The notes: a model not told the origin generated them from the sequence alone. Numbered from the stretch's first letter, positions 12,043-37,300 are shown. The stretch is DNA of 64,000 bases from Myxococcales bacterium (GCA_023248855.1 JAHFDS010000004.1:27876-91875); one strand, 5' to 3'. Made by a program: numbers and translations.

Positions 12043-12045
12043 CCG

Positions 12046-14472: not shown

Positions 14473-14488
14473 AATCAACCAAGGATGG
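14473..14488 (-). promoter_or_regulatory. CCATCC-TT-GGTTGATT box, copy 4, 56 nt upstream of the ATG at 14416
   Basis: Plus strand reads aatcaaccaaggatgg. It is oriented with the minus-strand operon. Confidence 0.35.
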
Positions 14489-14760
14489 TCGGTCGCTGAC
14501 TTCATGGGGCGGCGCCGCATGGCCCCCTGCGACCCTCCGGTACCTGTTCCGCGCCGAGCCGGAACGGCTGGCCACGGTGACCGCAGCTGTGCGGGGCGCA
14601 CGCGCGGGCGCTACCCACGGAAACGGCTAGCGTCCCTTCGACCATGTGGAATCGGCGACCGCAAGATGGCCATGATCGGCAGGTGTCGCCGATTCGTGAA
14701 GTGGTCTCGGCAGATCAGGCCGACCGATCGGCGAAGTCGAGCCCGAATCGTGGCGCCTTG

Positions 14761-14900: not shown

Positions 14901-14936
14901 GACGCGCAGGGCTCTGCCCCTCAGACCAGTCTGCTA

Positions 14937-17539: not shown

Positions 17540-18681
17540 GTCGAGTGCCTCAAGCCTTCGGCAACCCGGAGCCCGAGGACCCTCCAGGCCGGCACCACAG
17601 ACGCGGCCATCGAGACGAGGACGGATACGCACAGTCCGTAGGCCAGCGTCGTGGGCCTGACCGCAAGGCCCGACAACATCCCGATGCCGAGGGAGAAGCC
17701 CGTGCCGCCAAAGGCGGCGTAGGCGCCGCCACAACCGCCGAGCGCCCCGAGCGCCCCGAGCGTCGCTGCCTCGCCGAGGATCAACGCCACGACATGCCGC
17801 GGCTGAAAGCCGATGGCCTTGAGGAGGGCGAGCTCCCGCGTACGGTCGCGCGTGGTCATGGCGATGCTGTTGGCCACCAGCAGCAGCACGACGACCAGGA
17901 CGAGCAGGACGACGCCGGACACCATGCCCTGGATGTTCCCCATCACGCTCATGAAGCCCTCGATGAAGGCCCGCTGCGACACCGCACGGACCGGCGCCGG
18001 TGAGGTGGCGAACTCCTCGTGGATTCGCCGCGCCACGGCCGGGATATCGGCCACCGAGCGCACCTGCACGGCGAACATCGTGATGAGCCCGGTCTGGAGC
18101 CCGGCGCTGCCGAGCGCGGCCTCGAGGTACTCGCGGTGGAACACGAAGGACGCCTTGTCGGTGGCGAAGTTCGCGGCGCCGCACAGAGTCAACGTGAGAT
18201 CCACCGGCCAGACGGCTCCCGAGAGCGTGACCTGCTGGCCGATCCGCCAGCGGTGCTTCTCGATGAGCTGCGAGCCGACCAGGGCGCCGGCGCGGGTTCG
18301 CTCGAAGCACGCGAACGCCCCCGGAGCGATCACGAGCTGGTCACCCCAGATCTTGCGCGGGTCGTCGCCGTCGGTGCCCATCGAGGCGAAGCTGTCCTGC
18401 GGACCCCTCGATTGGCCGTAGGAGCCCCCATAGAAGAGGCTGCGCCCAATCCGCACGACTCCAGGAATGCGCCGGATGCGTGCCGTGTAGCGTTCCGGCA
18501 TCACATGCGCCCATCCGGACTTGTGGGTGACCACGATGAGCGGATTCTGGCCGGCGCGCTCCATCTCCCCGTCGAGCGAGGTCACGACCGCGATGAGGGA
18601 CGTGAACAGAAAGAGCGACACCGAAAGGCCGAAGGTCGTGAGCGACGTTCGCAGCGGATTGCGCCGCGCGTTCTTGACCAT
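17536..18681 (-). CDS. ABC-transporter permease, MacB/FtsX family (first of pair)
   Basis: Start at ATG 18681 (MVKNARRNPLRTSLTTFGLSVSLFLF). FtsX block RELALLKAIGFQPRHVVALILGEA. In frame with track ORF 17536..18885. Confidence 0.85.
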   Translation of the reverse strand: MVKNARRNPLRTSLTTFGLSVSLFLFTSLIAVVTSLDGEMERAGQNPLIVVTHKSGWAHVMPERYTARIRRIPGVVRIGRSLFYGGSYGQSRGPQDSFASMGTDGDDPRKIWGDQLVIAPGAFACFERTRAGALVGSQLIEKHRWRIGQQVTLSGAVWPVDLTLTLCGAANFATDKASFVFHREYLEAALGSAGLQTGLITMFAVQVRSVADIPAVARRIHEEFATSPAPVRAVSQRAFIEGFMSVMGNIQGMVSGVVLLVLVVVLLLVANSIAMTTRDRTRELALLKAIGFQPRHVVALILGEAATLGALGALGGCGGAYAAFGGTGFSLGIGMLSGLAVRPTTLAYGLCVSVLVSMAASVVPAWRVLGLRVAEGLRHST

Positions 18682-18920
18682 CAGTGAAAGCAGACCACGC
18701 AGCACTTCTCTGCCCCGCTGGTCCTGTGCGAGCGCCGTGCCAGCCGCGGTACGGGCTCCATCGGTGTCACCCGAGCGACCGACTTCTGCGTGTGCGCCGA
18801 GCATGCGGCAGATCTCGCCGATCCGCGCGCCCTCTTCGGCAACTTCCGCCGCTCGGCCGGTCGCCACGCGCCGGCCCGCCCACAATCCAGACGGCCCGCC
18901 TCTTGCCTCTCGACTCCTTG

Positions 18921-21206: not shown

Positions 21207-21251
21207 CGCCCCGCGAAGCGCCGCATCGACGATGAGCCCCGGGAGGTCGAT

Positions 21252-21515
21252 ATGCAGCGGGTGACGATCCTGACGACGGTGAACGAGGTCCTTCGGCGCG
21301 AGCTCCCGAGCCTTGGCGACACGGAGCTCGTGCAGGACACGCCTTTGCTGTCCACGGGCCTGCTCGATTCGTTCGCCATGGTGACCCTGCTGGCGGCGCT
21401 CGAGCAGGCCTTCGCGATCAGCCTGGACGTGGAGCGCATCTCGCTCGGGCAGCTCGAGACACCGAGCGCGATTGCCGATCTCTGTCGAGACGCGCTCTCG
21501 TTCCAGCCAGGATGA
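21252..21515 (+). CDS. Stand-alone carrier protein (DltC/ACP-like)
   Basis: 87 aa with gggagg upstream. Phosphopantetheine-site pattern TGLLDSFAMVTLLAALE. Confidence 0.8.
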   Translation: MQRVTILTTVNEVLRRELPSLGDTELVQDTPLLSTGLLDSFAMVTLLAALEQAFAISLDVERISLGQLETPSAIADLCRDALSFQPG

Positions 21516-24436
21516 TGGAAACTCATGTCGAGCCATGCTGGCCCGATCCGTTGGTGCAGCGCCTGGCTCTTCACGCGCGTGCGCGCCCGGACCGGCCCGC
21601 TTTGATCTTCCCGTCGCCGACCGGCGCGACGGTGGTGCTCGGCTGGCGTGAGCTCTTCGAGACCGTCCGTAAGCTGGGCGCCCATCTCGCTTGCGCCGGA
21701 GTCGCTCCCGGCGAGGCCGTCGCGGTCCTGTCCTCGTCGCAGCGCGAGCAGATCCTCGGGTTTCTGGCGGTGCTGGCCTGTGGCGGTGTGCCCACCATCC
21801 TCTCGCATCCCTCGATCAAGCAGAGCGCCGCCCAATTCCTGGACACGTTCCGTCACGTCCTCTCGAGCGGTGGCATTGGCTGGCTATTGCACGGAAGCGA
21901 CGGGGTCGGCAATATTCGAGGCGAATCGCAGAGCGGCGGCGCGCCGGCAGCCCGCTCGATCGAGTTTCCGGATGTGGCCTCGCTCACCGAGCGAGCCGAG
22001 CCAAGACCGATGGTCCCCGATCGACCGATGTTCCTCCAGTTCTCGTCGGGAACGACGGGGCTCCGGAAGGGGATCGCGATCAGTGGGGCAGCCTACCAGG
22101 CCCACGTGAGCGCCTATTCGACGCTGCTCGAGCTCCGGCCCGACCGTGACGTGGTGGCGAGCTGGCTTCCCCTTTACCATGACATGGGCCTCATAGCCGC
22201 CTTCCTGGTCCAGATCGATTGCGGTGTAACGTCGGTTCACATCTCACCCTTCGACTGGCTCAGCCGGCCGGTCTGGCTGTTTCGGCTCGCCACGCACCAT
22301 CGCGCGACCTTCCTCTGGATGCCGAACTTCGCCTTTCAGCTCTGCGCGGCGCGGATCTCGAGCGACGACCTGGCCCACGACGTCGATCTGCGGGACGTCA
22401 GAGGCTTCATCAGCGCAGGCGAGCCGGTGCGCGATCTGGCCCTGACGAGCTTCTGCGCCCGGATGGCGCCTGTGGGCGTGCGGCCCGATCAACTGCAAGT
22501 CTCCTATGGCATGGCCGAGAACGTCTTCGCGATCACGCAGACGCCGCTCGGCAGGGAGCCGGTACTCGACGTGGTGGAGCGGGAGCCGCTCCAGCGCGCG
22601 CGGCTCGCCATGATAGCGGCCCCCGGCAAGACGACCATCACCTACGTCTCGTGCGGCCAGGCAATCGCGGGCACGTCCGTCCGGATCTCGGGCACTACCG
22701 TCGAGCGGGTCGTGGGCGAGATCGAGATCAAGGGCGACAGTCTCTTCGACGGCTACTGGAGACGAGACAGGTCGGTCGACCAGGATGGCTGGTTTGCGAC
22801 GGGCGACCTCGGATACCTGGCCGACGGCGAGCTCTACGTCACCGGCCGCGCCAAGGACCTCATCATTCACAATGGGGTCAACCTGCCTCCCAATGAGATC
22901 GAGGAGGTCATCGAGCAGGTCGCCGGCGTCAAGGTCGGACGTGTCGTCGTCTTCGGCGTCTTCAACGAGGGAGCTGGCACCGAGGACGTCGTCGCGATGC
23001 TGGAGGTCACCGACGACGCCCCCTGTGCAAGAGACGTCAAGCGTGCGGTGCGCGAACAGGTGCAGCTGCAACTCGGGCTGTCTCTTTCGGAGGTGGCCGT
23101 GTGGGGGCCAGGGGCACTAGCCAAGAGCACGTCCGGCAAGCTCTCGCGGGCTCGCAACCGCGAGCTCCTTCTCGAGCATCGCGCAAGCCTCGCGACCCAG
23201 CGGGCCGAAGAGGCCCCCGCCGGCCCCACGAGTCCCACCGAGGCCCGGCTCGTGCAGCTATGGGAGGCTGCTCTCGCCGGCAGGTATCCGGGACAGCGGA
23301 TCGGCATCCGAGATCTGCTCTTCTCGGAGCTCGGCGCAGACTCGCTTGCTGCGATGGAGGTGCTGGCGGGCATCCAGACGCATCTCGGCAGGGACCTCAG
23401 CCCGGCCCTGTTGTTCCAGCACGAGACCATCGAGGCCCAGGCGTCCCTGATCCAGGGCCGCGCGAAGCCGAGCCCATTGCTGGTCACGATGCGGCGGGGC
23501 CAGGCCGGCCGCAGCCTGTTTCTGGTGCACGACGCGAGTGGCGATACGCTGTCCTACCTCCCGCTCGCTCGACACATCCCGAACGGCTGGTCGATTCACG
23601 CGCTCCAGAACCCGCATGCGTTCGGGCGCGACGGCATGTACGACAGTGTGCAGTCGATGGCCGCGGACTACCTGCGCGCTCTACAAACCGTGCAGCCCAC
23701 CGGACCCTACTACCTCGGCGGTCATTCTTGCGGTGGCACGATCGCGTACGAGCTGGCGTCGCAGCTGGAGCGCGCGGGCCAGACCGTCGGTGCGGTCATC
23801 CTCATCGATTCGTTTCCGCCGCGATCGCCGAACCTCTTCGACGGTAGGGTCGTGCTCGAGCGCTGCCGGTCGAGGATCCAGGAACAGCTGGCCGAGCCGC
23901 CGCACCGGCGCACGCACACGAAGATAAGAGGCCTGCTCGACCGACGCCCTGAAATCCAGCTGCTCGATCTGGTGTATCTGTTCGAGGATCTGGGCACCCT
24001 CTGTGACGCCATCGAGCTGTGCCTGCCCGAGGCGGCCGGAGAGCCCTCCGTGCGGTTCCCGTCTGTGGAGGATCGCTGGAGGTCCCTTTACGGGCGCCTG
24101 ACTCCACTCCTCGTGGAGTGGGCCTGGCGACCGCGGCTCTACCGAGACAAGACGCGAGCCGCGCTCCGCAGGGCTAGCGTCGTCGCGCGCTCGCTGGTCA
24201 TCTTGACCGACTACCGGCCGGCCCGGCCCATGGAGGCGCCCGTCGTGCTGATCAAGGCCGCCGACTCGGATCAGAGCCTGGGCTGGGATGAGCACACTGT
24301 CTGGCCCATGACCGTCCACGCGGTCGAGGTGGTCGACCTCCCTGCCGCTGGGACTTCGCACACGCACATCATCACGGGCCGGAACGCGCTGGCGGTAGGC
24401 CGCACGATCGCGGCGGCGCTGGAGGCCGCGCCGTGA
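21512..24436 (+). CDS. Tri-domain FAAL-type adenylation - carrier (T) - thioesterase protein
   Basis: ATGA overlap with the carrier gene. FAAL-type cores: FSSGTTGLRKGIAIS, WLPLYHDMGLI, MPNFAFQLC, TGDLGYLADGELYVTGRAKDLIIHNGVNLPPNEIE. Carrier motif LGADSLAAME (Ser codon 23342-44). TE motifs LFLVHDASGD and GGHSCGG (Ser codon 23726-28). Confidence 0.88.
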   Translation: MMETHVEPCWPDPLVQRLALHARARPDRPALIFPSPTGATVVLGWRELFETVRKLGAHLACAGVAPGEAVAVLSSSQREQILGFLAVLACGGVPTILSHPSIKQSAAQFLDTFRHVLSSGGIGWLLHGSDGVGNIRGESQSGGAPAARSIEFPDVASLTERAEPRPMVPDRPMFLQFSSGTTGLRKGIAISGAAYQAHVSAYSTLLELRPDRDVVASWLPLYHDMGLIAAFLVQIDCGVTSVHISPFDWLSRPVWLFRLATHHRATFLWMPNFAFQLCAARISSDDLAHDVDLRDVRGFISAGEPVRDLALTSFCARMAPVGVRPDQLQVSYGMAENVFAITQTPLGREPVLDVVEREPLQRARLAMIAAPGKTTITYVSCGQAIAGTSVRISGTTVERVVGEIEIKGDSLFDGYWRRDRSVDQDGWFATGDLGYLADGELYVTGRAKDLIIHNGVNLPPNEIEEVIEQVAGVKVGRVVVFGVFNEGAGTEDVVAMLEVTDDAPCARDVKRAVREQVQLQLGLSLSEVAVWGPGALAKSTSGKLSRARNRELLLEHRASLATQRAEEAPAGPTSPTEARLVQLWEAALAGRYPGQRIGIRDLLFSELGADSLAAMEVLAGIQTHLGRDLSPALLFQHETIEAQASLIQGRAKPSPLLVTMRRGQAGRSLFLVHDASGDTLSYLPLARHIPNGWSIHALQNPHAFGRDGMYDSVQSMAADYLRALQTVQPTGPYYLGGHSCGGTIAYELASQLERAGQTVGAVILIDSFPPRSPNLFDGRVVLERCRSRIQEQLAEPPHRRTHTKIRGLLDRRPEIQLLDLVYLFEDLGTLCDAIELCLPEAAGEPSVRFPSVEDRWRSLYGRLTPLLVEWAWRPRLYRDKTRAALRRASVVARSLVILTDYRPARPMEAPVVLIKAADSDQSLGWDEHTVWPMTVHAVEVVDLPAAGTSHTHIITGRNALAVGRTIAAALEAAP

Positions 24437-25184
24437 CCACACCGATCCGCTCCAGCACCCAGGGCCGGTGCGTGTCGAGGAAGAAGTGGCCCGCGTCTAC
24501 TTCGTTGGTGGCCACGGCGGCGCTCGTCAGAGCGGCCCACGCCGCTGTATCGGAAGCAGAGACCGAGGTGTCTCGCCGTCCCGTCAGGACCGTGACGGGT
24601 ACGGAAAGCAGCGGGCCAGGCTCGTAGCGGTAGGCGGCGAGCGCCGCGAGGTCCGATCGAAGCGACGGCAGCGCGAGCGCCATCATCGCGGCATCCTGCA
24701 GCACCGCCAGAGGCGTGCCGTAGCAACGATGAAGCGCCTCGACGAGGGCTCGGTCTGGCAGGTGGTGGATGTGCGCGCCCCGCTGCGGCACCTGCGGCGC
24801 CGGTCGGGCGCCGACGACGAGGGCCTGCAACGGCGCCTGCTCGGCCTGCAGACGCCGCGCCAGCTCGAAGGCGATGAGCCCGCCCATGCTGTGGCCGTAG
24901 ATCACGAGCGGCAGCGTCGGCAGTGTGGACAGCGCGGCCGCCACACGCTCGACGATGCTACCGATGCTCGCCAACGCGGGCTCCCTCCACCGGTCCTGAC
25001 GGCCCGGAAGCTGTACGGCGCGGAGCTCGACGTGTGCAGGTAGCTTCGCCGGCCAGCTGTGGAAGACGGTGGCGCCGCCACCCGCATAGGGGACGCACAG
25101 GAGCCGGAGGCCCGGTGCGGCGGGCGGCGCACGGGTGCGCAGCCACAATGCGGCCTCGCCGTGCTCCATGCGGGCCGTCTGCAT
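24372..25184 (-). CDS. Type II (editing) thioesterase
   Basis: LLCVPYAGGGATVFHSWP..., GHSMGGLIAFE, ...DAGHFFL. Its last 65 nt overlap the 3' end of the convergent gene 21512..24436. Confidence 0.85.
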   Translation of the reverse strand: MQTARMEHGEAALWLRTRAPPAAPGLRLLCVPYAGGGATVFHSWPAKLPAHVELRAVQLPGRQDRWREPALASIGSIVERVAAALSTLPTLPLVIYGHSMGGLIAFELARRLQAEQAPLQALVVGARPAPQVPQRGAHIHHLPDRALVEALHRCYGTPLAVLQDAAMMALALPSLRSDLAALAAYRYEPGPLLSVPVTVLTGRRDTSVSASDTAAWAALTSAAVATNEVDAGHFFLDTHRPWVLERIGVVTARPPAPPRSCGLPPARSGP

Positions 25185-26392
25185 CAGCGCGCCGCCCGCT
25201 CTGTAGAGCCGTGGGCGAGCTCGTGCTCGACCCGGTCCGCTACTTCCGCCAGGCGGTCCTCGTCGAGCAGGGCGCCGGGCGCGCTGATGGTGACCTCCAC
25301 CGAATCGGCGAGACTGACGATCGCCACATGGAGAGGGAGATCATCCGTCCGCTGCGGCAGGGCGTGGACCGATCGACACGCAAATCCCCCGCCGCTCAGG
25401 GATCCGGCGTTCGGGATGTGCACGTGCGACACGACCGCGGAGAAGGGAAAGCGCCCCCGCCGCCGGTGCCCGCCCGACCAGAGCGCATACACCAGGCGCA
25501 GCACCAGCATCGGGAGCCAGCGCACGATGCAGTCGGCAGGATCGAGGCGAAGCGCCTCTTTCGCGGCCAGGCTGCGCAGCATCGTGCCATGAACTTCCTG
25601 CCAGGTCGGCTCGGCGGCGACGTCGAGGAAGATCGGGTAGGTCAGGTTGCCGGACGCGCGCAAGCCCTTCTGGTAGCGTCGCAGGTCGACCGGAATCATG
25701 ATGCGGGTCGGCATCGCATGCTGCCGGTAGGCCAGGCGCGCCAGCGCGGCCGCCACCCTGGCCACCATGGCCGGAATACGGCCGGCGAGCGAGATCCGCC
25801 GGCTCACGACCCTTCGCCGTCGTGACCCTGCGGGCCCACGGATGGGCGCGTAGCGGGCCGCCAGCGCGGCGCGCGTCCGCCGGCCCACCAGGGACCGGAC
25901 GAGCTCCCCGTCGTTGACCGTGCAGTCGGCGCCGACGGGGGGCTCACCGCGCAGCACCCGGAACACATCCTCCGCGAAGCCCAGCAAGCCCTGCGCATCC
26001 ATGACGCCGTGGAAGCACCGGAACAGGATCCGTGGCTCCGGCGAGCGTACGAGCACCAACTCGCAGGTGGGCCCGTGGAGCGGCGACAAGGGTCGCGCAA
26101 TCCCCACGCGGGCGGAGCCGTCGGGCCACGACTCCAGCACCCGGACGGGCGGCAAGGGGCCACACGCGACCCAGCGCGACCAGCCGAGCACTCCGCGCAA
26201 GACGAGGCGGCACCCTGGATTGACCGCCGCGGCTCGCTCGACCGCGGTCTGGACGCGCTCCACGGACAGGTCGCCGCTACCCTCGAGCACGATCTCGATC
26301 GAAAAGCCGGCGCGGGGCCGCTCCGCCGCCAGGTAGACCCGCTCGGTGAACGAGATCTTGCGCGATTGCACCGTGGGGCGCGCCTCAGGCAT
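25184..26392 (-). CDS. Stand-alone condensation-domain-like acyltransferase (PapA5 / WS-DGAT / NRPS C superfamily)
   Basis: Start at ATG 26392 (MPEARPTV), overlapping the upstream stop (ATGCCTGA). Active-site block CFHGVMDAQG at 25990..26019, a variant of HHxxxDG that keeps the second His and the Asp. About 400 aa. Confidence 0.65.
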   Translation of the reverse strand: MPEARPTVQSRKISFTERVYLAAERPRAGFSIEIVLEGSGDLSVERVQTAVERAAAVNPGCRLVLRGVLGWSRWVACGPLPPVRVLESWPDGSARVGIARPLSPLHGPTCELVLVRSPEPRILFRCFHGVMDAQGLLGFAEDVFRVLRGEPPVGADCTVNDGELVRSLVGRRTRAALAARYAPIRGPAGSRRRRVVSRRISLAGRIPAMVARVAAALARLAYRQHAMPTRIMIPVDLRRYQKGLRASGNLTYPIFLDVAAEPTWQEVHGTMLRSLAAKEALRLDPADCIVRWLPMLVLRLVYALWSGGHRRRGRFPFSAVVSHVHIPNAGSLSGGGFACRSVHALPQRTDDLPLHVAIVSLADSVEVTISAPGALLDEDRLAEVADRVEHELAHGSTERAAR

Positions 26393-27440
26393 GGTCGCTC
26401 CCACGGCTTCCAAGCAGCGGACGAACCAGCTCACGGACCCCGCCGATCTCGTTGACCCAGGAATGCAGCCGCCGCATCCCGGTGTCACGGTCGACGATCG
26501 GTACGTAGCCGAGATCGCGCTCCGCGGCGGTCAGGTCGTAGGTGCTCGTCAGGGTGAGGAGGCTGACCCCGTAGCGCGAGATCGGGGGGGCCACGCGGCG
26601 AGCCAGGTACGGTAGCTTCCAGATCCAGTCCACCACCGTGGCAATGGCGCTGGCGAGCCGCGGGCTCAAACGCCGTCGCGGAGGGGGCGCCGAGAACGCC
26701 GTGGCGAGCTGCGCGATGAAGGCCCAGACGTCGGTCTGTTCCCGGTCCGTCACGAAGTACGCGTGGCCCCCCACCCGCGGGGCCGTCCCCGCCGCGACGA
26801 TCGCGGCCGCCGCGTTTTCGCAGTAGCAGATCGCCGCCCGGACCGCTCGCCCGCCGGACAGATCGGGGAGCTTGCCCTCGATCAGCTTGGCGAGCAGCCT
26901 CGGCAGCGGCCCCATGCGATCACGAGGCCCCCACACCGCGCGCGGGCGAATGGCACAGGTCGCGATTCCACGGCCGTTTTCACCGAGGACGAGCTTTTCC
27001 GCGGCCGCCTTGGTCTCGCAATAGAGGTTCAGGTGGCGCCGGGGATAGGGATAGCGCTCGTCGATGTCCACGTGCGGCTTGCCGTCCGCGACCACGCTCG
27101 GACTGCTCACGAAGACGAAGCGTTCCACCCCGTTTCCGCGGCTGGCCGAGAGCAGGTTTCGGGTTGCGTGGACGTTGGCCGCGTAGAACTGCCGCCGGCT
27201 GCCGAGATCCGTGACGCGTGCCGCGGCGTGGTAGACGATCTGCACGCCGCGCGTGGCACGCTCGGCCGTGTCCTCGGTTTCGAGATCGCCGACGGCCAGG
27301 TCGATTCCAGGGAGCCGGCGCAGATGGCTGAGGTCGCTCGAGGGTCGCACCAGCACGCGCACCTGGTATCCAAGGGCGAAGCAGCGGTCCACGACGTGGC
27401 TGCCGAGGAACCCCGACGCCCCGGTGACGAGGACCTTCAC
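26385..27440 (-). CDS. NAD(P)-dependent 3-beta-HSD / epimerase-family reductase (OleD / LstD-like by context)
   Basis: GTG start 27440 overlaps the upstream stop (GTGA). Rossmann motif VLVTGASGFLGSHVV and YxxxK in LYCETKAAAE. This is the only believable part of the 1041-aa track ORF 26385..29510. Confidence 0.85.
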   Translation of the reverse strand: MKVLVTGASGFLGSHVVDRCFALGYQVRVLVRPSSDLSHLRRLPGIDLAVGDLETEDTAERATRGVQIVYHAAARVTDLGSRRQFYAANVHATRNLLSASRGNGVERFVFVSSPSVVADGKPHVDIDERYPYPRRHLNLYCETKAAAEKLVLGENGRGIATCAIRPRAVWGPRDRMGPLPRLLAKLIEGKLPDLSGGRAVRAAICYCENAAAAIVAAGTAPRVGGHAYFVTDREQTDVWAFIAQLATAFSAPPPRRRLSPRLASAIATVVDWIWKLPYLARRVAPPISRYGVSLLTLTSTYDLTAAERDLGYVPIVDRDTGMRRLHSWVNEIGGVRELVRPLLGSRGSDHA

Positions 27441-29380
27441 GGGCGCGGGCTCCGGGCCGCGCGGGCGAGGGGGCCCCACCACGTCGCGCCGAGCAGGAAC
27501 GTGCAGGCGACGGCTCGCAGGTCCGAGAAGCCCGCACGCCGGGCGTGTGGGAGCGCGATGAATACCTGCAGGCCGTGGACGACGATGCTGAAGAAGGCGT
27601 CGATCCACCACAGCGCGCGCAGCGTCGGGCTCGCGAGCGGCCATGCGAGGCCCACAAGGAGGAAGATCCAGCCCGCAATGGGGACCAGCTGAAGCACTCC
27701 GACGGATGCGACGCGACCTTCGCGTGGCAGCCGCGAGGCGGCCCACAGGGCGAGCTCCTCGCGCTTGATCTTCGCGTTGTGGCGAACGTCGACCGGAAAC
27801 GATGGGTGGAATAGAAACGTCTCGAGGCCCGCGGTCAGGCTGTGCCGCGCGGCCAGGTGGCAGAGCTCTCCGCGGATGCGCGCGCGCACCGCTCGGCGGA
27901 CGCGCTGGCGCAGCTCGATGCAGACCACGGGTACCGGCGCGCCGGGGGAGCCGACGCCCACCAGCGCGCTGCGGTACACATCGGGATGGGCGTTGAAGAC
28001 CCCCTCGACCTGCACGGAGTACAGCGGGCCCCGCTTCGTGTTGACCCGATGGCTCTTGCGGCCACAGAACCAGAGGCGGCCCCGCTCGTCTACCCATCCG
28101 AGATCGCCCGTGCGATGCCAGCGCCGTCCCTGGTCGGGGATCTTGAAGAGCGCGTTGGCCTCCGGGTTGCGGTGATAGCTGCGGCTGACGACGGCGCCGG
28201 AGATGACGATCTCGCCGACCTCGCCGGGTGGTGCCCGGAGGGCGTTCGACCAGGCCGCGATCGGCCCGTCCGAGATCTGCACGATTCGCGCGTCGAGCTC
28301 GTCGGTGGGCTGTCCCACGCAGGTGCCCTGACCGGCGTGAGTGCGCGCGGCGGTCTCCCCGAGGATCTGGGAGGATTCGATGGAGGAGATCGGCGTCGCC
28401 TCGGTGGCGCCGTACGTGGTCTCGAGCCGGGCGTCGGCGGACAAGAGCGCACGAAAGCGCTCCACGATCGCGGGCGTCACGGGCGCCCCCCCGCATACCA
28501 CCGTGCGCAGGCTCGGCAGGCTGGTGTCCCGCGCCTGTGCGCAGTGCGCGACTCGGTGCAACAGCGCCGGAGAGGCGAACATGTGGGCCACACGAAACGC
28601 CGCGATGGCCTCGAGGATCTTTCGCCCATCGACGGACGCTGGGCGCGAGGGATCCATCGGCGCCAGCACCGCGGTGAAGCCGAGCAGCAGATCCAGGATC
28701 GCCATGAACGGCAGCGTCACGAGTGTGACCTCGTCCTCGGCGGGCGTTGGCAAGGCGCGAACCAGCGCACGCACGCGCCGTAGCATCGCCTCGACGGCGC
28801 CGTGCGTGACCTCGACGCCCTTGGCGGGGCCGGTGCTGCCGGTGGTGAAGCTGATGAGCAGGAGATCCTCGACCGTGGTCCTTGCGAGCGGGAGATCGCC
28901 GCTTGTGGAGCGTGCGATCCGGGCCAGCGAGGCCCCACCCCAGCACCAGCGCGGACCGACGGTGACGAGGGTCCGGAGCGTGGAAAACGTGCCGGGCCGC
29001 AGCACGCGCACCAGGTGGGCGAGGGGGATCCCCACGAAGGCGTCCGCACCCACCGCGGCGTAGCAGTGGAGCATGCGTCGGACCCCCATACCCGGATCGA
29101 CCACCACCGGAACCGCTCCGAGCTTGAAGAGAGCGAAGAGGATCGCGAACAGCTCCGAGCCGGGCTTGACCATGACGATGGTCCTCGTGCCTCGTCCGAT
29201 CCCATGCGACGCGAAGCCGCGCGCGCACGCATCCGACTCCGCGTCGATCTCGCGGTAGGTGCGCTGCGCCCAGCGGGTGGCGCCGCCGGCGCGAGCGGGA
29301 AACACGAGCGCGCGGCGATCGGGGAACCGCCGGGCGTTCTCGCGCAGGTGCTCGGCAACGTTCAGGGGCGCGTTCAGCAT
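27437..29380 (-). CDS. ANL-superfamily ligase of the OleC / LstC (beta-lactone synthetase) type, with a C-terminal membrane extension
   Basis: Cores ISFTTGSTGPAKGVEVTH, YGATEA, HRTGDLGWVDERGRLWFCGRKSHRV and tail FPVDVRHNAKIKREELALWA. The assignment to the OleC type rests on gene context (thiolase pair upstream, 3-beta-HSD downstream) and is not verified by search. Confidence 0.7.
   Translation of the reverse strand: MLNAPLNVAEHLRENARRFPDRRALVFPARAGGATRWAQRTYREIDAESDACARGFASHGIGRGTRTIVMVKPGSELFAILFALFKLGAVPVVVDPGMGVRRMLHCYAAVGADAFVGIPLAHLVRVLRPGTFSTLRTLVTVGPRWCWGGASLARIARSTSGDLPLARTTVEDLLLISFTTGSTGPAKGVEVTHGAVEAMLRRVRALVRALPTPAEDEVTLVTLPFMAILDLLLGFTAVLAPMDPSRPASVDGRKILEAIAAFRVAHMFASPALLHRVAHCAQARDTSLPSLRTVVCGGAPVTPAIVERFRALLSADARLETTYGATEATPISSIESSQILGETAARTHAGQGTCVGQPTDELDARIVQISDGPIAAWSNALRAPPGEVGEIVISGAVVSRSYHRNPEANALFKIPDQGRRWHRTGDLGWVDERGRLWFCGRKSHRVNTKRGPLYSVQVEGVFNAHPDVYRSALVGVGSPGAPVPVVCIELRQRVRRAVRARIRGELCHLAARHSLTAGLETFLFHPSFPVDVRHNAKIKREELALWAASRLPREGRVASVGVLQLVPIAGWIFLLVGLAWPLASPTLRALWWIDAFFSIVVHGLQVFIALPHARRAGFSDLRAVACTFLLGATWWGPLARAARSPRP
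27440..27725 (-). other. Hydrophobic C-terminal extension (about 3 predicted TM helices) on the OleC-like ligase
   Basis: Sequence: VGVLQLVPIAGWIFLLVGLAWPL...LRALWWIDAFFSIVVHGLQVFIAL...LRAVACTFLLGATWWGPL. Confidence 0.6.
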
Positions 29381-30255
29381 CGGTACACCGCGCAGGCGCT
29401 CGTGAGCCCGGCACCGGCGACGGCAAACAGGACCTCGACGTGATCGCCCAGGCGACGCTCCGCGAGCGCGCGATGGTAGCCGAGCGCGAGCGCAGAAGAG
29501 TGCGGCTCACCGTGGCCGGGGGCGGTGACGACGCTTCGTGCCGCTACCCCGAGCGCCGTCGCGAGGCGGTCTGCGAAACCCAGCGAGATCCGAGAGGTGA
29601 CGAAGAGGGTTTGCGACAGGTCGATCTGGTGCGACGCCGCGTGCCCGCGGATCGAGGTCACCAGGAGATCGAGGACGCGCTCCTCGTAATCGGGATCGCG
29701 TCGCAACGTCAGGCATTCGCGGCCGCGGTGGCCGCTGTCGCCGATCGCCAGGTAGCCTTCGCTGCCCGCCGAGTCGCGCGCTGCATCGTACGTGGTCACC
29801 GGGCCGAAACCGCGGCCAGGGTGATCGTCGTGGCCGAGCAGGACGGCCGCGCCGAGCGCGCGGATCGGGAAGCCGTGGGCGACTCGCTTCGACGGGTGGG
29901 CATCGCTCGAGACGATGAGGACCTTGCGCGTCTCGCCGAGCGCGAGGAACGCGCTCGCGACCTGCACGGCGTTGAGGAACCCGCACGCACCGTTCATGAG
30001 ATCGAAGGAGAAGGCAGCCTTCGGGTGCGCCACGTAGTCGAGGCTGATCCCGAGCTCGCGTTGGATGAGCGCTGCGATCCCGGGTTCCGTGAGGTTGTCG
30101 TCGCGATAGATCCCGACATGGATCAGGAGGTCAATCTCGTCGGGACCGAGTCCGGCCGTCTCGAGGCAGGCCCGAGAGGCCGCCGTGGCGTGGGTGAGCG
30201 CGCTCGCGATTTCCGGAGCGCAGCTCGATCCTGTGGCGAGGATGATGGCGCCCAT
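29374..30255 (-). CDS. KAS-III/thiolase-fold protein lacking the His-Asn pair (non-catalytic partner; LstB / NltB / PqsB-like)
   Basis: 293 aa. FDLMNGACGFLNAV keeps a Cys, but the His and Asn positions read FVTSRISLGF and GEPHSSALALG. It carries TEP (NLTEPGIAALIQRELG) at the position where FabH has F-P. Confidence 0.7.
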   Translation of the reverse strand: MGAIILATGSSCAPEIASALTHATAASRACLETAGLGPDEIDLLIHVGIYRDDNLTEPGIAALIQRELGISLDYVAHPKAAFSFDLMNGACGFLNAVQVASAFLALGETRKVLIVSSDAHPSKRVAHGFPIRALGAAVLLGHDDHPGRGFGPVTTYDAARDSAGSEGYLAIGDSGHRGRECLTLRRDPDYEERVLDLLVTSIRGHAASHQIDLSQTLFVTSRISLGFADRLATALGVAARSVVTAPGHGEPHSSALALGYHRALAERRLGDHVEVLFAVAGAGLTSACAVYRC

Positions 30256-30256
30256 G

Positions 30257-31315
30257 TCACACCTCGAGCGACGAGATGGTGGCGGAGACGCACCCGGTGA
30301 CGATCCCCGACGCCGCCGGAACGAACAGGATCTTGTTGCCTCGCTGGATGCGCCCTTGCCGGAGGTGATGGTCGAGCACCACGAAGTGGGACGTCGTGGC
30401 GGTGTTGCCGTACTCCTCCACGCAGCTCAGGGATCTCGGGACCTCGTGTCCTAGCTCCGGGCCGGCCACCTTGGAGAAGAGGTGCATCGCGAGCGTCCCG
30501 ACCTGGTGGTGAATGACGTGGTCGAAGCGTTCCGAAGCGAACGTGGCACCCCTTCGAGCCAGGACGTCGGCGAGAAAGGCGGGCCACAGCTTGATCCGAT
30601 GCCGGCTGTGCAGCTCCAGGTTGTTCGCGTACATGGCCATGCCCGGTTGCTGATCGCTCGGCATGCCGAGGCACATGAGGGCGTACTCGGCACAGGTCAC
30701 GAGCTCGATGTAGTGGATCCGATCGCGCTCGTCCTCCGATCGGTCGATGATCACCGCTGCCCCGGAGTCCCCCACGGTGAGTGAAGCCAGCTGTGGGTCG
30801 CGCGCATCCCTGACCTCCCGAGTGGCGGTCTCGGCGATGGGCGTGATGCACTCTCCACTGACGACCATCCCGGATCGGACGATCCCCGCCTTGATCATCC
30901 GATCGAGGAGCATGACGCCGGTCATCATTCCGGCGCAGGCGTTGGAGAGATCGAAGTGGAGCGCGCCATGCGCCCCGATGGCGCGCTTGATCCAGAGGGA
31001 GAACGCCGGTTCGAAGTAGATCCGGTAGCCGCCCACCTCGTCATTGCGGGCACGCGAGATGGAGGTCGACACGATGACGTCGAGCTGCTCGGCCCGGTAC
31101 CGAGATCGCGCCAGGCAGTTCTTCGCCGCGAGCAACGCGAGGGCCAGCGAGTCCTGGTCTGCGTCGCGGACTCGACGGTTCCGGATCCCGGTGAATCCCT
31201 CCAGGTCATCGGCTGACGCGGCGGTCATGCCGGCCATGAGCTCAGCGGTCGCCTGGACCGTCGCCGGTAGGTAGGCGCCGAGCGCCTCGAATCGTGTGAA
31301 GCGCGCGGTCGTCAT
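30257..31315 (-). CDS. KAS-III/thiolase-fold condensing enzyme with a complete Cys-His-Asn triad (OleA / LstA-like by context)
   Basis: FDLSNACAGMMTG (Cys codon ~30935-37), VIHHQVG, YGNTATTSH. FEP (RIYFEPAFSLWIKRAIG) occupies the FabH F-P position. Its ATG overlaps the PKS stop (ATGA at 31312-31315). Confidence 0.8.
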   Translation of the reverse strand: MTTARFTRFEALGAYLPATVQATAELMAGMTAASADDLEGFTGIRNRRVRDADQDSLALALLAAKNCLARSRYRAEQLDVIVSTSISRARNDEVGGYRIYFEPAFSLWIKRAIGAHGALHFDLSNACAGMMTGVMLLDRMIKAGIVRSGMVVSGECITPIAETATREVRDARDPQLASLTVGDSGAAVIIDRSEDERDRIHYIELVTCAEYALMCLGMPSDQQPGMAMYANNLELHSRHRIKLWPAFLADVLARRGATFASERFDHVIHHQVGTLAMHLFSKVAGPELGHEVPRSLSCVEEYGNTATTSHFVVLDHHLRQGRIQRGNKILFVPAASGIVTGCVSATISSLEV

Positions 31316-34300
31316 GCGGCCTCGGTTCGACGCGGGATGGTGGACATCCCGAGCCGCTCGAGCAGGTGGGCGGCCAGTGTCTCCACGGTCGCGTGGTCAT
31401 ACAGCTCGTGGACCTCGATCCGGGGCTCCAGCGAGAGCTCGTGCTGCGCCCGGCTACGGACCTCCACCGCCATGAGGGAATCCAGGCCGAGATCCATGAA
31501 CGTCTCGCTGCCCGGCGCCAAGGGCGAGTCGAGGCCCAGCACCCGCGCCACCTCGACCGCGATCCAGGTCTGCAGGAGCGGACCGCGGCGCTCCTGCGCC
31601 GCCGCCGCGAGCTCCGCGCGCAGCTGTCCGGCCGGCGCGCGATCGTCGGGGCCATCCCCGATCGTCGGGCTCATGCCCAGATCGGACACGAGCGGGCGTG
31701 GCCCCCGCGCCTCGTAGCTGCGGCGGAACCGCGGCCAGTCCACATCTGCCACGATCGGAGCCGGGGCTCCCGCCTGCAGGGCGGCGCCGATCGAGCGCAG
31801 CGCCACGTCCGGATCGAGCTTGCGGATCCCGCGCTCCTCGAGCGCGACGCCGGTCTCGCCGGCGGCCATTCCGTCTCCGGCCCAGGGGCCGAAGGCCACG
31901 GTGGTGGCGGGGATCCCACGGGCCCGGGCGCTTCGGGCCCACACCTCGAGGAAGGCGTTGGCGGCTGCGTAGGCGGCCTGACCACCGCTGCCCCAGACCC
32001 CGGCGATGGATCCGAAGCAGACGAACGCGTCGAGCGGCTGGCCCACAATCAGGGCTTCGAGCGCGCGGGTCCCGGCGACCTTGGGTGCCAGCGTGGCCGC
32101 CCAGCTCTCCGCGTCGAGCGGGCCCACGGTCGCCGTGCGGGGCGCTGCCGCGCAGTGCACGACGGTACGCAGCGGCATTCCTGCGGGCAGGCGTCGAGCT
32201 GCGGCGCGCAGGGACTCCACGTCCGCCACGTCGGCGTCGGCCACGGTAATGCCCACGCCGCGAACCTCGAGCGCCGCCACCGTCGCGGCCGCACCGGGCG
32301 TCTGGAGGCCACGCCGGCCGACGAGGAGGAGATGCTGGGCGCCCCGTTCCGCCAGCCAGCCGGCGATGCGCCGGCCGAGCGCGCCGAGCCCGCCCGTGAC
32401 CAGCGCGGCGCCCGTGGTGCGAAAGCCTCGTGCCGCCCCGGGCACGGCGGCAGGAACCACGCGCGGCACCCAGGCCCCGCCGGCGCGCAGCGCGAGCTGG
32501 TCGTCCACAGCGCGGGCGATGAGCACCTGGCCGAGTTGCCGCGCCAGGGCAACATCGAGCGGCCCCGGAAGGTCGACCAGGCCGCCCCAGGCCGATGGCT
32601 CCTCGAGCGCGAGCGTGCGCCCGAGCCCCCACGCCACCGCCTGCTCTGGGTTCGACGGAACGTCGCCGGCTCCAATCGATACCGCGCCTCGTGTGACCAG
32701 CCACAGGGGGATTCGTGCCGTGATCGCGGTGGTGGTCATGCCGAGCAGCACCCCCGAAGCGATCGGGCTCTGTTCGAGCAGGAGGACGAGGGCGGTGGCG
32801 CCGCTCGCATCCTGCGTCACCTCGCCGGGCGTGATCAGCTCCGTTTCGGCCCCGGCTTGCCGGAGGGCGGATGCCAGCAGCGAGCCATCCCCGGCTGTCG
32901 CCATCACGCGAAAGCGACCGGCACCTCGGGCGCGGCGCACGGGCGGCACGGAAGCCTGCCGCTGCCAGGCCAGCTCGTAGAACGGTCCCGTCGGGCCGTC
33001 CTCGCTCACAAGGTTCTGGTCGCCGGCGGCGATGGCTGCCCTCGCCTTGCCGAGCCAGTAGCGCTGGCGTTGCCAGGGATACGTGGGCAAGTCGACGACC
33101 GGGCCCCCGACCGGGAACACACCGCGCCAGTCGACCTCCGCGCCGCGCGCGTGGAGTGCCCCGAGGACCTCGAGCATCGCAACGCTGGCCGGCACGTCGG
33201 CACGCAGGGCTTCCAGATCCAGGACGACCTCGGGGCCCGAGGCTCCTAGAGCACCTGGTACGACGGCCGGGATCTCGAGCGCCCGATGGACCCGTGGATC
33301 CTTGATCCGGTGGCCGTCGGGTTGCGCGCTCGCGACCACGAGCCGGGCGGCCTCCGCGAGCGAGAGCACGCCGCCGATTTGGGCTGCGACGATCTCGCCG
33401 ACGCCTGCGCCACCGAGGCGATTGGGCACGATGCCCCACGAGCGCCAAAGGGCCCCGAGCGCGACCCCTGCTGCGAAGGCCACGCGCTCGGCTGGCCGCT
33501 CATCCGTTGCGTCCTCCCGGCTGGCTCGGGCGAGCGCCCCGATGGCTGCTGCGAGCGCTTGCCGGAACACGGGCCAGGTCTCGCCGAGCTCCTGGGCCGT
33601 CCGCTCCAGATCGCCGCCGCCGCCCGGGAACCACAAGGCCAGCGAGGGTGCATTTCCCGCGGTGCCGCGCGCCACGCCGTCGGGCGTCTGGCCGCCGCCG
33701 ACGGCGATCAGGGTGTGGCGCAGCGCATCGAGGGAGCTCGCCGTGATCGCCAGCCTGCAAGCGAACGATGTTCGCGAGGTGGCCAGCGTCCGCGCGAGAT
33801 CGCCGAGGGCGAGCTCCGGATGGGCATCGAGATGCGCGGCCAGCCGGGTGGTGGCCTCGGCGAGCGACGTCTCATCGCGTCCGGACAGGACCACGAGCTC
33901 GGCCGGCCGGCGCGTCGTCGCTGCGGTCACCGGCGTCTCCGGCGCCGCGGACAGCACGACGTGGGCGTTGGTGCCGCTGAAGCCGAAGCTGCTCACGCCG
34001 GCCACGCGGGGACCGTCCGGAAACGGCATGGCCTGCCGGGCCACGGCGACGGGCCACTGGTCCCATGCGATCATCGGGTTGAGCGCCTCGGCGTGGAGCG
34101 TCGCGGGGATGCGGCCGCGTTGCACGCACAGCGCCGCCTTGATGAGGCCGGCCACGCCCGCGGCCCCTTCGGTGTGCCCGACGTTGCTCTTGACCGAGCC
34201 GATCACGACCGGGCGATCCGCCGGGCGCCCCGCCCCGATCGCCGCTCCGATCGCCTGAACCTCGATCGGATCCCCGAGCGAGGTGCCGGTTCCGTGGCAT

Positions 34301-37300
34301 TCGACGTAGCCCACCTCCGCCGGAGCGAGGCCAGCGTTCGCGAGGGCGCGGACGATCACGTCCTGTTGCGAGGGCCCGTTCGGCGCCGTGAAGCCGTTGC
34401 TGCGGCCGTCCTGGTTGACCGCCGAGCCGCGGATGACCGCGACGACCGGATCGCCGTCGCGGAGGGCGTCGGACAGGCGCTTTAGCACCAGCACGCCGCA
34501 GCCCTCCGCGCGCACGTAGCCATCGGCGCCAGCCGAGAAGCTACGGCAACGTCCGGTCGGCGACAGCGCCCGGAGCCTGCTGAAGTAGACCGTGCACTCG
34601 GGGGCGAGGGTGAGGTTGACGCCGCCGGAGAGCGCGAGGTCGCACTCCCTGAGGCGTAATCCCTGGCAGGCCAGGTGAATCGCCACGAGCGCCGACGAGC
34701 AGGCCGTATCGATCGGGAGGTTCGGCCCCTTGAGCCCGAGCCAGTAAGAGAGGCGCCCTACCGTGGCGCTGTGGGCCGTGCCGAGATACGAGTAGCCGTC
34801 GATGCGACCGGGATCGCCCATGGCCCAGTACTGGTAGTCGTTGGCACTGATGCCGACATAGACCCCCGTGTTGCTACCCATGAGCGACCCCGGGACGATC
34901 CCTGAGCGCTCGAGGGCCTCCCAGGTGCACTCGAGCAGCAATCGCTGCTGCGGGTCGATGGCGACCGCTTCGCGCGGAGCGATGCCGAAGAAAGCCGCGT
35001 CGAAGCGGTCGGGCAGCTCGACGAAGCCGCCCCAGCGGCTGCTCATCTTGCCGGCAGCACTCGGGTCGGGGTCGTACCAGTCGTCGATTGCCCAGCGATC
35101 GCTCGGCACCTCCGTGATCGCGTCCACGCCATCCTCGAGTAGCCGCCACAGCGCGTCCGGACCCTGGACGCCCCCCGGAAAACGGCAGCCGATGCCGACG
35201 ATGGCCACGGGCTCGTCCGTGGCAGCGCGCCGCGACCGCCCGGGTGCCGACACCGTCGAATCCTGACCCTCGACGCGTGTCAGCAGGTGATCGCAGAGCG
35301 CACCCAGGCTGGGGTAGTCGAAGGCGATCGTCGCCGGCAGTGAGGTGCCCAGGCGCTCGATGAGGGCGCTGCGCAGCTCGACCGCCATCAGGGAATCCAG
35401 GCCGAGCTCCTGGAACGGAGCCTCGAGCGGCACGTCGGCCGGCGATGGCAGCGCCAGGATCCGCGCCAGCTCCGTGCGCACGATCGCCTCGAGGTTGCCA
35501 GCCGTGGCCGGCGGCCTCCGGCCGAGCTGGGTGGAGGGATGGGCCGCACGGCCCTCGATCGTGGACCAGTCCACGGGCGCACCGGCGACGTGCAGCCGCG
35601 CCATCGCTTCGAGCGCGCTCGCATGCTCGTCGCGCCCCCGCGTGAGCGACGCCACCCGTACGACCGGCGCGTCCGGTCGCGCCAGGGCGTCCATGCCCAG
35701 CAGCACGGATTGGGGGCCGATCTCGACGCAGATCTCGGCGCCCACCTGATCGAGCGCGATGAGCCCCTCTGCGAAGCGAACCGAGGATCGGACCTGGCGG
35801 GCCCAGTAGGCTGGATCCATCATGAGCGCCGCGCCGGCGCGAGCGCCCGTGACGTTCGAGATGAGCGCGAGCCGCGGAGGTCGCAGCGCGAGCGTGGTGG
35901 CCAGCTCCGTCAGCCCCTCGAGCATCGGATCCACGAGCGGCGAGTGAGCGGCCAGGGAGATCGCGAGCCGCTTCGTGCGGACGCCGCGGGCCGCAAACCA
36001 GGCCGCGACGGCCCTCGCATCGGCCGCAGGGCCCGAGATCACGACCGCTTCGGGGCCGTTGACCGCCGCGACGGCGACCCGCTCTCGCAACGGGGCGAGG
36101 GCGTCCAAGACAACCGCCTCGGAGGCCGCGATCGCGATCATCTCGCCCCCCGGTGGCAAGGCCTCCATGGCGCGCGCCCGTGCAACCACGAGCCGGCAAC
36201 AGTCGGCCAGGCCGACGACGTCCGCCACGCAGGCGGCGACGAGCTCGCCGAGGCTGTGCCCGAGGACGACGTCGGGACAAATGCCGCGCGTACGCCACAG
36301 CGCGACCAGCGCCCATTCGAACGCGAAGAGCGCGGGCTGGGTCGTGCCCGTGCGATCGAGCAGGGCTGCGCGGGGTGTGCCTGCGGCAGCCCACATGATC
36401 TCGCGGAGCGGGTGCTCCAGATGGCGATCGAGCTCGGCGACTGCCTCGTCGAATGCGGCGCGGAACGCGGGCTCGGTCTCGTGGAGGCGGCGCCCCATGC
36501 CCGCGACCTGGGCGCCCTGGCCGGCAAAGAGAAACGCGACCCGGGGGTGGGTACGCGCCTCTCCGACGAAGACACCTTCGGCGAAGAGGCCCGCAGCATG
36601 AGCATCCAGGGAGCGAGCGGCGGCAGCGGCATCGGCCGTGATCACGCACAGGCGATGCGGCTCGTCCGGCGCGGAGGTGCTGCAGGAGGCGACCACGTCG
36701 CAGAGCCCATCCTGGGGACGGTCACGGAGCCGGGCGCCAAGGCGCGCCGCTGCCTCCTGCAAGGCCTCGGTGCTGGGACCCGAGATACGCAGCACGTGCA
36801 ATGGACGCGGGTCGTCGGCAGCGGCGACCGTGGTCGATGTTCGGGGGCGGGGTTCGATCCAGTACCGTTCGCGCTGCCAGGCGGTGGTGGGCAGCGCGAC
36901 CCGCCGGGCGCCAGGTGCCACGACGCCGCGCCAGTCGACCTGACCACCCATCGCGTACCAGCTTCCCAGCGCTTGCAGCAACGCCTCCGGCTCCGGGCGC
37001 CCGGTCCCGAGCGAGCCGAGCAGCACCCCCGGCGCCTGCAGGCCCGCGCGCACGAGCTCGAGCAGCGTCGGCCGAGGACCGATCTCGATGAACGTCTTTG
37101 CGCCGGCCGCTTGCAACGCGCGAGCACTCGCCGAGAACCGGACGTCGTCGCGCGCGAGGCGCATCCAGTAGGCTGGCGTGGCGATCTCGGTGCCGGCGAG
37201 GGCGCCGGTGAAGCTCGACACGATCCCGAGGGACGGGGCCTGATAGCGCACCGATGCGGCCACGCGCGCGAGGCTCTCCGTCGCGCAAGACAGCGTAGCC

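Follow-up and report, generated by a model that had tools for sequence, protein, structure and literature searches.

The 64-kb window analysed here (the whole stretch of 64,000 nucleotides taken from a Myxococcales bacterium, GCA_023248855.1 JAHFDS010000004.1:27876-91875, with about 70% G+C overall) encodes on its minus strand a four-gene cassette related to those that build the beta-lactones lipstatin and nocardiolactone, namely two thiolase-fold proteins (ThiA and ThiB), a ligase of the OleC/LstC family and a reductase of the OleD/LstD family. This cassette is a further member of the known and widespread lipstatin/nocardiolactone-type family, not a new system. What is unusual is its translational coupling to a modular type I polyketide synthase (PKS) that has no thioesterase (TE) domain, an arrangement seen nowhere else in this analysis. 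Our preferred reading, which is tentative and to which we give slightly less than an even chance, is that the LstAB-type pair serves as the release catalyst of this PKS, joining a 3-hydroxyacyl chain bound to its acyl carrier protein (ACP) with a fatty acyl chain, and that enzymes of the OleD and OleC types then lead to an acylated alpha-alkyl-beta-lactone.

The cassette and its coupling to a polyketide synthase

The four genes lie on the minus strand at the positions and in the order given by an earlier reading of the same DNA (the original prediction), and all of them have a coding-type G+C content at third codon positions (0.81-0.86) and clear family matches. They are thiA (30257-31315, 352 aa), encoding an LstA/NltA-like subunit of the beta-ketoacyl-ACP synthase III (KAS-III) type, as judged from Pfam, NCBIfam, PDB alignments and motif positions; thiB (29374-30255, 293 aa), encoding a truncated LstB/NltB-like partner with the same fold (Pfam, NCBIfam and alignments); the gene of an ANL ligase of the OleC/LstC family (27437-29380, 647 aa; NCBIfam and motifs), a putative beta-lactone synthetase; and that of a 3-beta-HSD-type reductase of the OleD/LstD family (26385-27440, 351 aa, with a GTG start; Pfam, NCBIfam and motifs). 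Pfam and NCBIfam place KAS-III N- and C-terminal domains in both thiolases (weakly in ThiB), an AMP-binding domain in the ligase and a 3-beta-HSD/epimerase domain in the reductase.

The junctions between these genes were read directly. An ATGA overlap joins the end of the PKS gene to the start of thiA, a single nucleotide separates the thiA stop from the thiB ATG, thiB and the ligase gene overlap by ATGCTGA, and the ligase stop overlaps the GTG start of the reductase (GTGA). The series does not end at 26385, the limit of the stretch described in the original prediction, since two further overlapping genes come after the reductase: that of a stand-alone condensation-fold protein, C*, whose ATG at 26392 overlaps the reductase stop (ATGCCTGA), and that of a type II thioesterase. 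Starts and stops thus overlap in an unbroken co-directional series from the PKS through the type II thioesterase.

The PKS itself (31312-41370, minus strand, 3352 aa) was read from Pfam searches with the whole protein and with segments of it, together with its motifs, and has the domain order FAAL-ACP-KS1-AT(GQSVG, short)-AT(GHSLG)-ACP-KS2-dead AT remnant(GAGVG)-KR-ACP, in which FAAL stands for fatty acyl-AMP ligase. Both KS domains have their Cys-His-His, and the stretch of approximately 400 aa between KS2 and KR is an AT remnant that has lost its serine (GAGVG). No TE domain was found by Pfam in the whole protein or its segments, which, together with the ATGA overlap, bears out the earlier claim of a TE-less PKS translationally joined to thiA. 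The tandem ATs of module 1 occupy residues from about 1230 to 1931 and the dead remnant of module 2 those from about 2560 to 2990, and one of the module 1 ATs may serve module 2 in trans. On a colinear reading, a fatty acyl starter extended twice would give a 3-hydroxy-5-oxoacyl thioester on the last ACP; such a predicted 3-hydroxyacyl product is the type of substrate that LstAB uses. A homology search with the C-terminal module of the PKS returned generic type I PKS matches only, with a best full-length identity of 38%.

A probable OleA-type pair with one triad-less subunit

ThiA has the full KAS-III triad that had been ascribed to it, with Cys127 in NACAG, His270 in HHQVG and Asn304 in GNTAT. 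As to ThiB, it had been described as lacking His and Asn, and both are indeed gone (the His column holds Ser and the Asn column Glu), but so is the Cys position, which holds Ala90 with Cys91 one residue on, meaning that the whole triad is missing. The other feature singled out earlier, a Glu-Pro in both proteins at the position of the FabH Phe-Pro, also holds: YFEP of ThiA, LTEP of ThiB, YLEP of OleA (with Glu117) and HAFP of FabH share one alignment column (the FabH and OleA sequences in this motif alignment being fragments out of the PDB search output), so that ThiA Glu102-Pro103 sits at the column of OleA Glu117. The Glu102-Pro103 of ThiA itself would face into ThiB.

These residues are strongly conserved. 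Related loci provided 133 distinct sequences of the ThiA family, all of which retain Cys, His and Asn and 129 of which retain Glu102, while ThiB Glu57-Pro58 is invariant across 18 aligned relatives. Identity to ThiA is mostly 50-61% among the thiB-adjacent genes of closer relatives (GTDB and the best metagenome loci) and is no higher than about 35-40% for the metagenome loci farthest away. In the close ThiB family, Cys91, His120-Pro121 and His252, near the former active site, are invariant besides Glu57-Pro58, and the triad-less ThiB may keep a remodelled pocket.

The same residues have been examined in the characterised systems. LstA C128, H271 and N305, as well as LstB E60, are required for function (PMC12141560), and NltB is a truncated, triad-less protein in which E57 is essential (bioRxiv 10.1101/856955). 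ThiA C127, H270 and N304 correspond to the LstA residues minus one position, and ThiB Glu57 to NltB E57 and LstB E60. Counterparts of LstB are widespread and always co-clustered with LstA, according to a recent review (PMC12141560).

Against solved structures both proteins score only 20-63 bits, the chains compared being those of FabH, OleA, PqsC/D and CorB/MxnB. By sequence alone, ThiA is roughly as far from OleA (58 bits) as from FabH (63 bits); it had no match to CorB/MxnB in the PDB sequence search (E<=0.001), and ThiB reached only 19-21 bits in the same comparison.

Ligase and reductase

In NCBIfam the ligase scores 638 bits with PRK09274 (curated cutoff 478) and matches the OleC models end to end, with 547 bits for the Xanthomonas type (cutoff 900) and 468 bits for the Shewanella type (cutoff 850). 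The best ordinary acyl-CoA ligase family, PRK06187, gives 180 bits (cutoff 476), a difference that sides with the original reading of the protein as OleC over an ordinary acyl-CoA synthetase. Its adenylation motifs A3, A5, A7, A8 and A10 are intact. The reductase matches Pfam 3Beta_HSD (E 1e-39), has two OleD models as its top NCBIfam hits (214 and 194 bits, cutoff 580) followed by HpnA (136 bits), and contains the motifs TGASGFLG and YCETK. A PDB sequence search for OleC, OleD or LstAB structures gave generic ANL and SDR matches only. By their profiles, both proteins are best regarded as OleC- and OleD-family members and not as equivalogs, their putative functions being drawn from family and synteny only.

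The ligase further carries a C-terminal hydrophobic extension of approximately 95 aa (residues 553-647, window positions 27437-27724, from hydropathy) with two or three predicted membrane helices. It is not part of the OleC or PRK09274 profiles (544-555 positions), and it is conserved, with 36-62% identity, in 94 out of 107 related loci, which suggests that LstC-type lactone synthetases may be membrane-anchored.

Distribution of the cassette and rarity of the PKS linkage

ThiB relatives were found by a pattern scan at 372 loci of GTDB species genomes and at 122 of JGI metagenomes, and the proteins of the window were mapped by tblastn onto 169 fetched loci, 166 of which encode a ThiB relative. 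All four genes are present in 100 of these 166, and the A-B-C-D order is kept in 82, a recurrence that puts the gene set beyond chance; the linkage of an OleA-type thiolase with OleC and OleD in those 100 loci goes along with the overlap of the ligase gene with both the reductase gene and thiB in the window. A homologue of C*, whose gene comes next after that of the reductase in the window, was also found in 72 loci. Among 5.8 billion proteins none is closer to ThiB than 55% identity, the best GTDB match has 48%, and the nearest relatives include metagenome-assembled genomes (MAGs) of Polyangiaceae and Sandaracinaceae. The Nocardia loci fall outside the best 80 GTDB matches and are therefore more distant than the Streptomyces and Myxococcota-type loci.

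Two of the related loci deserve special attention. Streptomyces sp. NBC_00829 (L017) encodes thiA, thiB, ligase and reductase followed by a 1026-aa protein (an unknown N-terminal domain, an adenylation domain and a thiolation domain) and a formyltransferase, which is the published lipstatin layout, with its nonribosomal peptide synthetase (NRPS) and the formyltransferase for attaching N-formyl-leucine (bioRxiv 10.1101/856955). The proteins of L017 are 46-54% identical to those of the window (46-53% for ThiA and ThiB, a comparison made with this lipstatin-layout locus). This gene-for-gene homology to lipstatin/nocardiolactone-type clusters, the L017 layout and the residue matches are in agreement with the lst/nlt-type gene order initially recognised. 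The other locus, L085, on a 90-kb metagenome contig, has the order thiA-thiB-ligase-reductase-A-PCP-C*-MacAB (A standing for an adenylating protein and PCP for a peptidyl carrier protein), with EF-G upstream and no PKS, and looks like a PKS-less counterpart of the cluster in the window.

A different order, ligase-reductase-(gap of approximately 1.5 kb)-thiA-thiB, occurs in L074, L079, L107, L109, L110, L113 and L122 (Oleispira-type, marine loci) and recurs in marine gammaproteobacterial and metagenome loci. The gap gene of L074, the only one examined, encodes a cytochrome P450 (Pfam), which would point to hydroxylated lactones rather than olefins in that locus.

No match to a KS, AT or KR domain of the window was found in any of the 169 loci (tblastn, E<=1e-8); the flank upstream of thiA reaches 5 kb or more in 102 of them, 90 of which also have 8 kb or more downstream. 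A type I PKS was likewise absent from three further contexts of relatives, and the PKS-cassette linkage is therefore unique in this sample. In the literature searched there was no PKS-linked LstAB/OleC cluster and no relevant myxobacterial beta-lactone. A 6-kb contig of an uncultured delta proteobacterium (the MAG locus L045) carries an A840-like gene (55% identity to the stand-alone adenylating enzyme described below), thiA, thiB, the ligase and then a FAAL up to the contig end; this FAAL is 47% identical to the loading FAAL of the PKS, and no reductase lies between it and the ligase. L045 may be a second PKS-linked cassette, the contig stopping at the FAAL.

Precedents for carrier-bound substrates

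Are there enzymes of this fold that act on chains tethered to a carrier protein? The statement that no precedent existed for an ACP-bound partner proved too strong. OleA accepts acyl groups from the ACPs of Pfa synthases (PMC6463001), and CorB and MxnB are KAS-III enzymes that join two PKS-bound chains head-to-head (as summarised in PMC12304814). A third precedent comes from an exhaustive HMMER search with ThiA, which returned many proteins of approximately 670 aa with two matched stretches, as well as megasynthases of 1000-3854 aa whose C-terminal end is an LstA-LstB-like pair. Examples of the latter are P0355 (FAAL-ACP-KS-AT-MT-ACP-C-A-PCP-KASIII-KASIII), P0290 (FAAL-ACP-C-A-PCP-KASIII-KASIII) and P0283 (C-A-PCP-KASIII-KASIII); P0288, P0295 and about 40 other proteins, together with the loci L173 and L174, provide further fused didomains.

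Of the two KAS-III domains in these proteins, the first shares 35-40% identity with ThiA as well as the motifs FEP, NACAG, HQ and GNT, and the second is triad-less, 27-38% identical to ThiB, and keeps the Glu of YRxDxxxEP. Cys91 of ThiB is not conserved in the fused didomains. No OleC or OleD genes were found beside the fused megasynthases in the neighbourhoods examined, for which reason these lines probably make no beta-lactones, and no description of them was found in the literature searched. The fused didomain looks like an uncharacterised Claisen-type release module. Its position directly behind a carrier protein implies tethered substrates, and the existence of such natural fusions makes a direct hand-over in the window more plausible, though unproven.

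Putative acylation genes and the absence of an OleB-like gene from the window

The four-gene core stands as originally read, but the genes for C*, the type II thioesterase and a neighbouring A-PCP-FAAL-ACP-TE set had been overlooked, and it is these that make the cluster lipstatin-like rather than nocardiolactone-like. C* (25184-26392, minus strand, 402 aa) has no Pfam, NCBIfam or PDB sequence match. Its AlphaFold2 model, built from 17 homologues, has a pLDDT of 86.9 and a pTM of 0.89, and Foldseek matches it to AzeD, the RzmA starter C domain, the SrfA-C condensation domain and WS/DGAT with E-values from 1e-19 to 1e-15. In the homologue alignment His128-x3-Asp132-x2-Gly135 is invariant, and C* is thus, as far as its modelled fold goes, a stand-alone condensation-type acyltransferase. 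In most related loci its homologue is the N-terminal domain of an LstE-like NRPS; in the closest relatives (L085, L087 and L088) a stand-alone C* follows an A protein of 750-840 aa and a small PCP. The type II thioesterase (24372-25184, minus strand, 270 aa, with GHSMG; Pfam Thioesterase, E 2e-43) is the final gene of the operon.

On the plus strand, A840 (18684-21206, 840 aa; Pfam/NCBIfam) is a stand-alone adenylating enzyme whose homologues, 51-57% identical, adjoin PCP and C* in L085, L087, L088 and L098. It is followed by a small carrier protein (PCP/ACP; 21207-21515, Pfam PP-binding, with a probable start near 21252) and by a FAAL-ACP-TE tridomain protein (21512-24436, 974 aa, TE with GHSCG; Pfam), which scores 300-321 bits with NCBIfam fatty acyl-AMP ligase families. 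A840 and the PCP are 53-57% identical to their counterparts in L085, and, together with C*, they are the split counterparts of the fused LstE-like protein of related loci. This plus-strand operon converges on the minus-strand PKS-to-TE operon with a 65-bp 3' overlap (24372-24436). A formyltransferase corresponding to LstF was not detected, there being no Formyl_trans match among the window ORFs (open reading frames) scanned, whereas L017 has one.

OleB belongs to the haloalkane-dehalogenase-like enzymes and uses an Asp nucleophile. According to Pfam and NCBIfam searches of the ORFs, no OleB-like gene is encoded within the 64-kb window, and the ligase has no hydrolase fusion; the annotated neighbourhoods of relatives show no OleB either. 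The previous statement that OleB is missing is therefore valid for the window and reaches no further. As an OleB-type decarboxylase is not nearby, the lactone would persist. The alpha/beta hydrolases of the window are the type II thioesterase (24372-25184), the TE domain of the FAAL-ACP-TE protein and a 299-aa protein (4133-5032). The latter was considered as a hidden OleB and rejected on account of its lipoprotein signal, its Ser nucleophile (GHSMG) and the lack of any OleB-type match, a weak one to BchO being all that NCBIfam gave.

Proposed pathway and alternatives

In the pathway that we propose, the PKS would be primed with a FAAL-loaded fatty acid, the first extension remaining unreduced and the second being processed by the KR. 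ThiA and ThiB, by homology a heterodimer of the OleA type, would catalyse the non-decarboxylative head-to-head joining of two acyl thioesters to a 2-alkyl-3-oxo acid, and would accept the 3-hydroxyacyl electrophile straight off the last ACP of the PKS: with Glu57 of ThiB as the base, the acyl chain on Cys127 would become an enolate and attack the ACP thioester, and the Claisen condensation would double as the PKS release step. The use of an ACP-bound chain by the pair is plausible in view of the gene coupling. The second acyl chain could come from acyl-CoA or from the FAAL-ACP-TE protein. By homology, the reductase would then convert the 2-alkyl-3-oxo acid to the 3-hydroxy acid, from which the ligase would form the beta-lactone ring by way of the adenylated carboxylate. 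A840, PCP and C* would act as a split LstE and attach an acyl or aminoacyl group to the side-chain hydroxyl through an ester bond, and the nearby MacB-type pumps could export the product. In lipstatin biosynthesis the 3-hydroxyacyl electrophile comes from beta-oxidation (of linoleate).

Several points weigh against this proposal. The coupling is seen at this one locus only, none of the 102 related loci with enough flank having a PKS. The characterised LstAB and NltAB act on acyl-CoA (PMC12141560; bioRxiv 10.1101/856955). The type II thioesterase and the TE domain in the cluster could free the PKS chain by hydrolysis; the odd AT set of the PKS (GQSVG, GHSLG and the dead remnant) makes its real product uncertain; the ligase (547 of 900 bits) and the reductase (214 of 580) score under the NCBI equivalog cutoffs for OleC and OleD; and an OleB could be encoded beyond the 64-kb window.

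Some of these points are the basis of alternative explanations. The same lactone chemistry could be reached indirectly, with a thioesterase freeing the PKS chain as an acid that is re-activated to its CoA ester before ThiA and ThiB use it; we consider this route unlikely, albeit a serious contender. The known activity of LstAB and NltAB on acyl-CoAs (PMC12141560; bioRxiv 10.1101/856955) and the presence in the cluster of two thioesterase functions and two extra adenylating enzymes speak for it, but type II thioesterases are normally editing enzymes, the ATGA joining of a TE-less PKS to thiA suggests direct hand-over, and so do the didomain fusions behind carrier proteins and the data on OleA and Pfa ACPs (PMC6463001). 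It is improbable that the PKS and the cassette make separate products, with the cassette joining two ordinary fatty acyl-CoAs: every related locus inspected works without a PKS, as this explanation would have it, but here the stop/start overlaps run through an unbroken co-directional operon, the PKS itself contains no release domain, and its predicted 3-hydroxyacyl product suits an LstAB-type substrate.

What if the lactone were only an intermediate? A distant OleB would turn it into an olefin and make the cassette a variant of the Ole pathway, which would fit the common occurrence of OleC and OleD families in olefin pathways and the possibility of an OleB beyond the window. We judge this very unlikely, as no OleB-like gene is found in the window or was seen in the annotated contexts of relatives, and the LstAB-type heterodimer pair with the C*/A/PCP acylation set is a signature of lipstatin-type lactones. 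Least credible of all is that the thiolase pair is a FabH-type starter enzyme or a CorB/MxnB-type pyrone ketosynthase and the ligase an ordinary acyl-CoA synthetase. The scores of ThiA among solved structures, 63 bits for FabH and 58 for OleA, are the argument in its favour, to which are opposed the ThiA result for CorB/MxnB (no match at E<=0.001, and 19-21 bits for ThiB), the replacement of the FabH Phe-Pro by Glu-Pro in both subunits, the obligate pairing with a triad-less partner next to OleC/OleD-family genes, and the 547 bits of the ligase with OleC versus 180 with the best acyl-CoA ligase family.

Other genes of the window

Upstream of A840, the window encodes a beta-lactamase-fold esterase (14934-16124) that resembles the lipase LipE (342 bits, below cutoff), adjoined by MacB/FtsX-type permease genes (16385-18885); MacAB-type pumps also come after the cassette in L085 and L087. 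It is possible that the LipE-like esterase and the permeases provide self-protection and export for a lipase-inhibiting lactone. The minus-strand stretch 9272-14575 encodes a GMC oxidoreductase, an aldehyde-dehydrogenase-like protein, a PaaK/LuxE-like adenylating protein and a pyridoxal phosphate enzyme closest to GntC-type aminotransferases. An AraC regulator near the cluster shares no more than 28% identity with its counterpart next to a related cassette and was for this reason rejected as a conserved partner. FHA-sigma54 activators and a STAND-type Ser/Thr kinase are also present, which, with the nearest relatives, would suggest a member of the Myxococcota as the source, and four long coding-type ORFs (53260-55512, 60750-63029, 6917-8188 and 8461-9264) have no Pfam match at E<=0.001.

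Relation to known systems and significance

Compared with lipstatin lstABCDEF of Streptomyces toxytricini, the order thiolase A, thiolase B, ligase and reductase is common to both clusters, OleB is absent in both, and condensation-like, adenylating and carrier functions are available in both for acylation of the skeleton, as separate proteins in the window. The formyltransferase LstF has no counterpart found in the window, which in turn has an extra FAAL-primed two-module PKS, a FAAL-ACP-TE protein and a type II thioesterase, and whose 3-hydroxyacyl partner is probably PKS-made and not derived from linoleate by beta-oxidation. Nocardiolactone nltABCD of Nocardia brasiliensis shares the minimal set of thiolase pair, ligase and reductase, and its truncated, triad-less NltB has an essential Glu57 with the same number as that of ThiB (bioRxiv 10.1101/856955), but it has neither acylating NRPS-like genes nor a PKS, both of which are found in the window. 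NltC was purified as a 60-kDa monomer, whereas the ligase of the window has 647 aa and a hydrophobic tail.

The OleABCD pathway has in common with our scheme an OleA-type non-decarboxylative Claisen condensation with a Glu base from the partner subunit, reduction by OleD and lactonisation by OleC. The differences are a homodimeric OleA, the presence of OleB and a hydrocarbon as the end product. With regard to the carrier-bound precedents, Pfa (of Shewanella and Photobacterium) is an iterative polyunsaturated fatty acid synthase, whereas the PKS of the window is modular, TE-less and translationally coupled to a thiolase. CorB and MxnB, in the corallopyronin and myxopyronin pathways, are stand-alone KAS-III enzymes ending two assembly lines by joining carrier-bound chains head-to-head (as summarised in PMC12304814). 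Their product is an alpha-pyrone and they have no OleC/OleD partners, unlike the pair in the window. In the fused didomain megasynthases the subunits are joined to each other and to the assembly line, while ThiA and ThiB are separate proteins.

Lipstatin-type beta-lactones inhibit lipases and further serine hydrolases covalently, orlistat being obtained from lipstatin, and in the known pathways of this type both chains come from fatty-acid metabolism, which limits their structural range. Should free acids or CoA esters be the sole link between PKS and cassette, this would simply be another lipstatin-like cluster among hundreds. If the proposed release mechanism is true, a cassette with its own PKS would show how the skeleton is naturally diversified, Claisen-type release would join the list of PKS off-loading mechanisms, and a compact cluster of about 23 kb would be available for heterologous expression and the engineering of lactone warheads. 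The locus is a lead for genome mining and enzymology rather than a new kind of system, and what it might lead to is a new, polyketide-derived subclass of lipstatin-like inhibitors of serine hydrolases.

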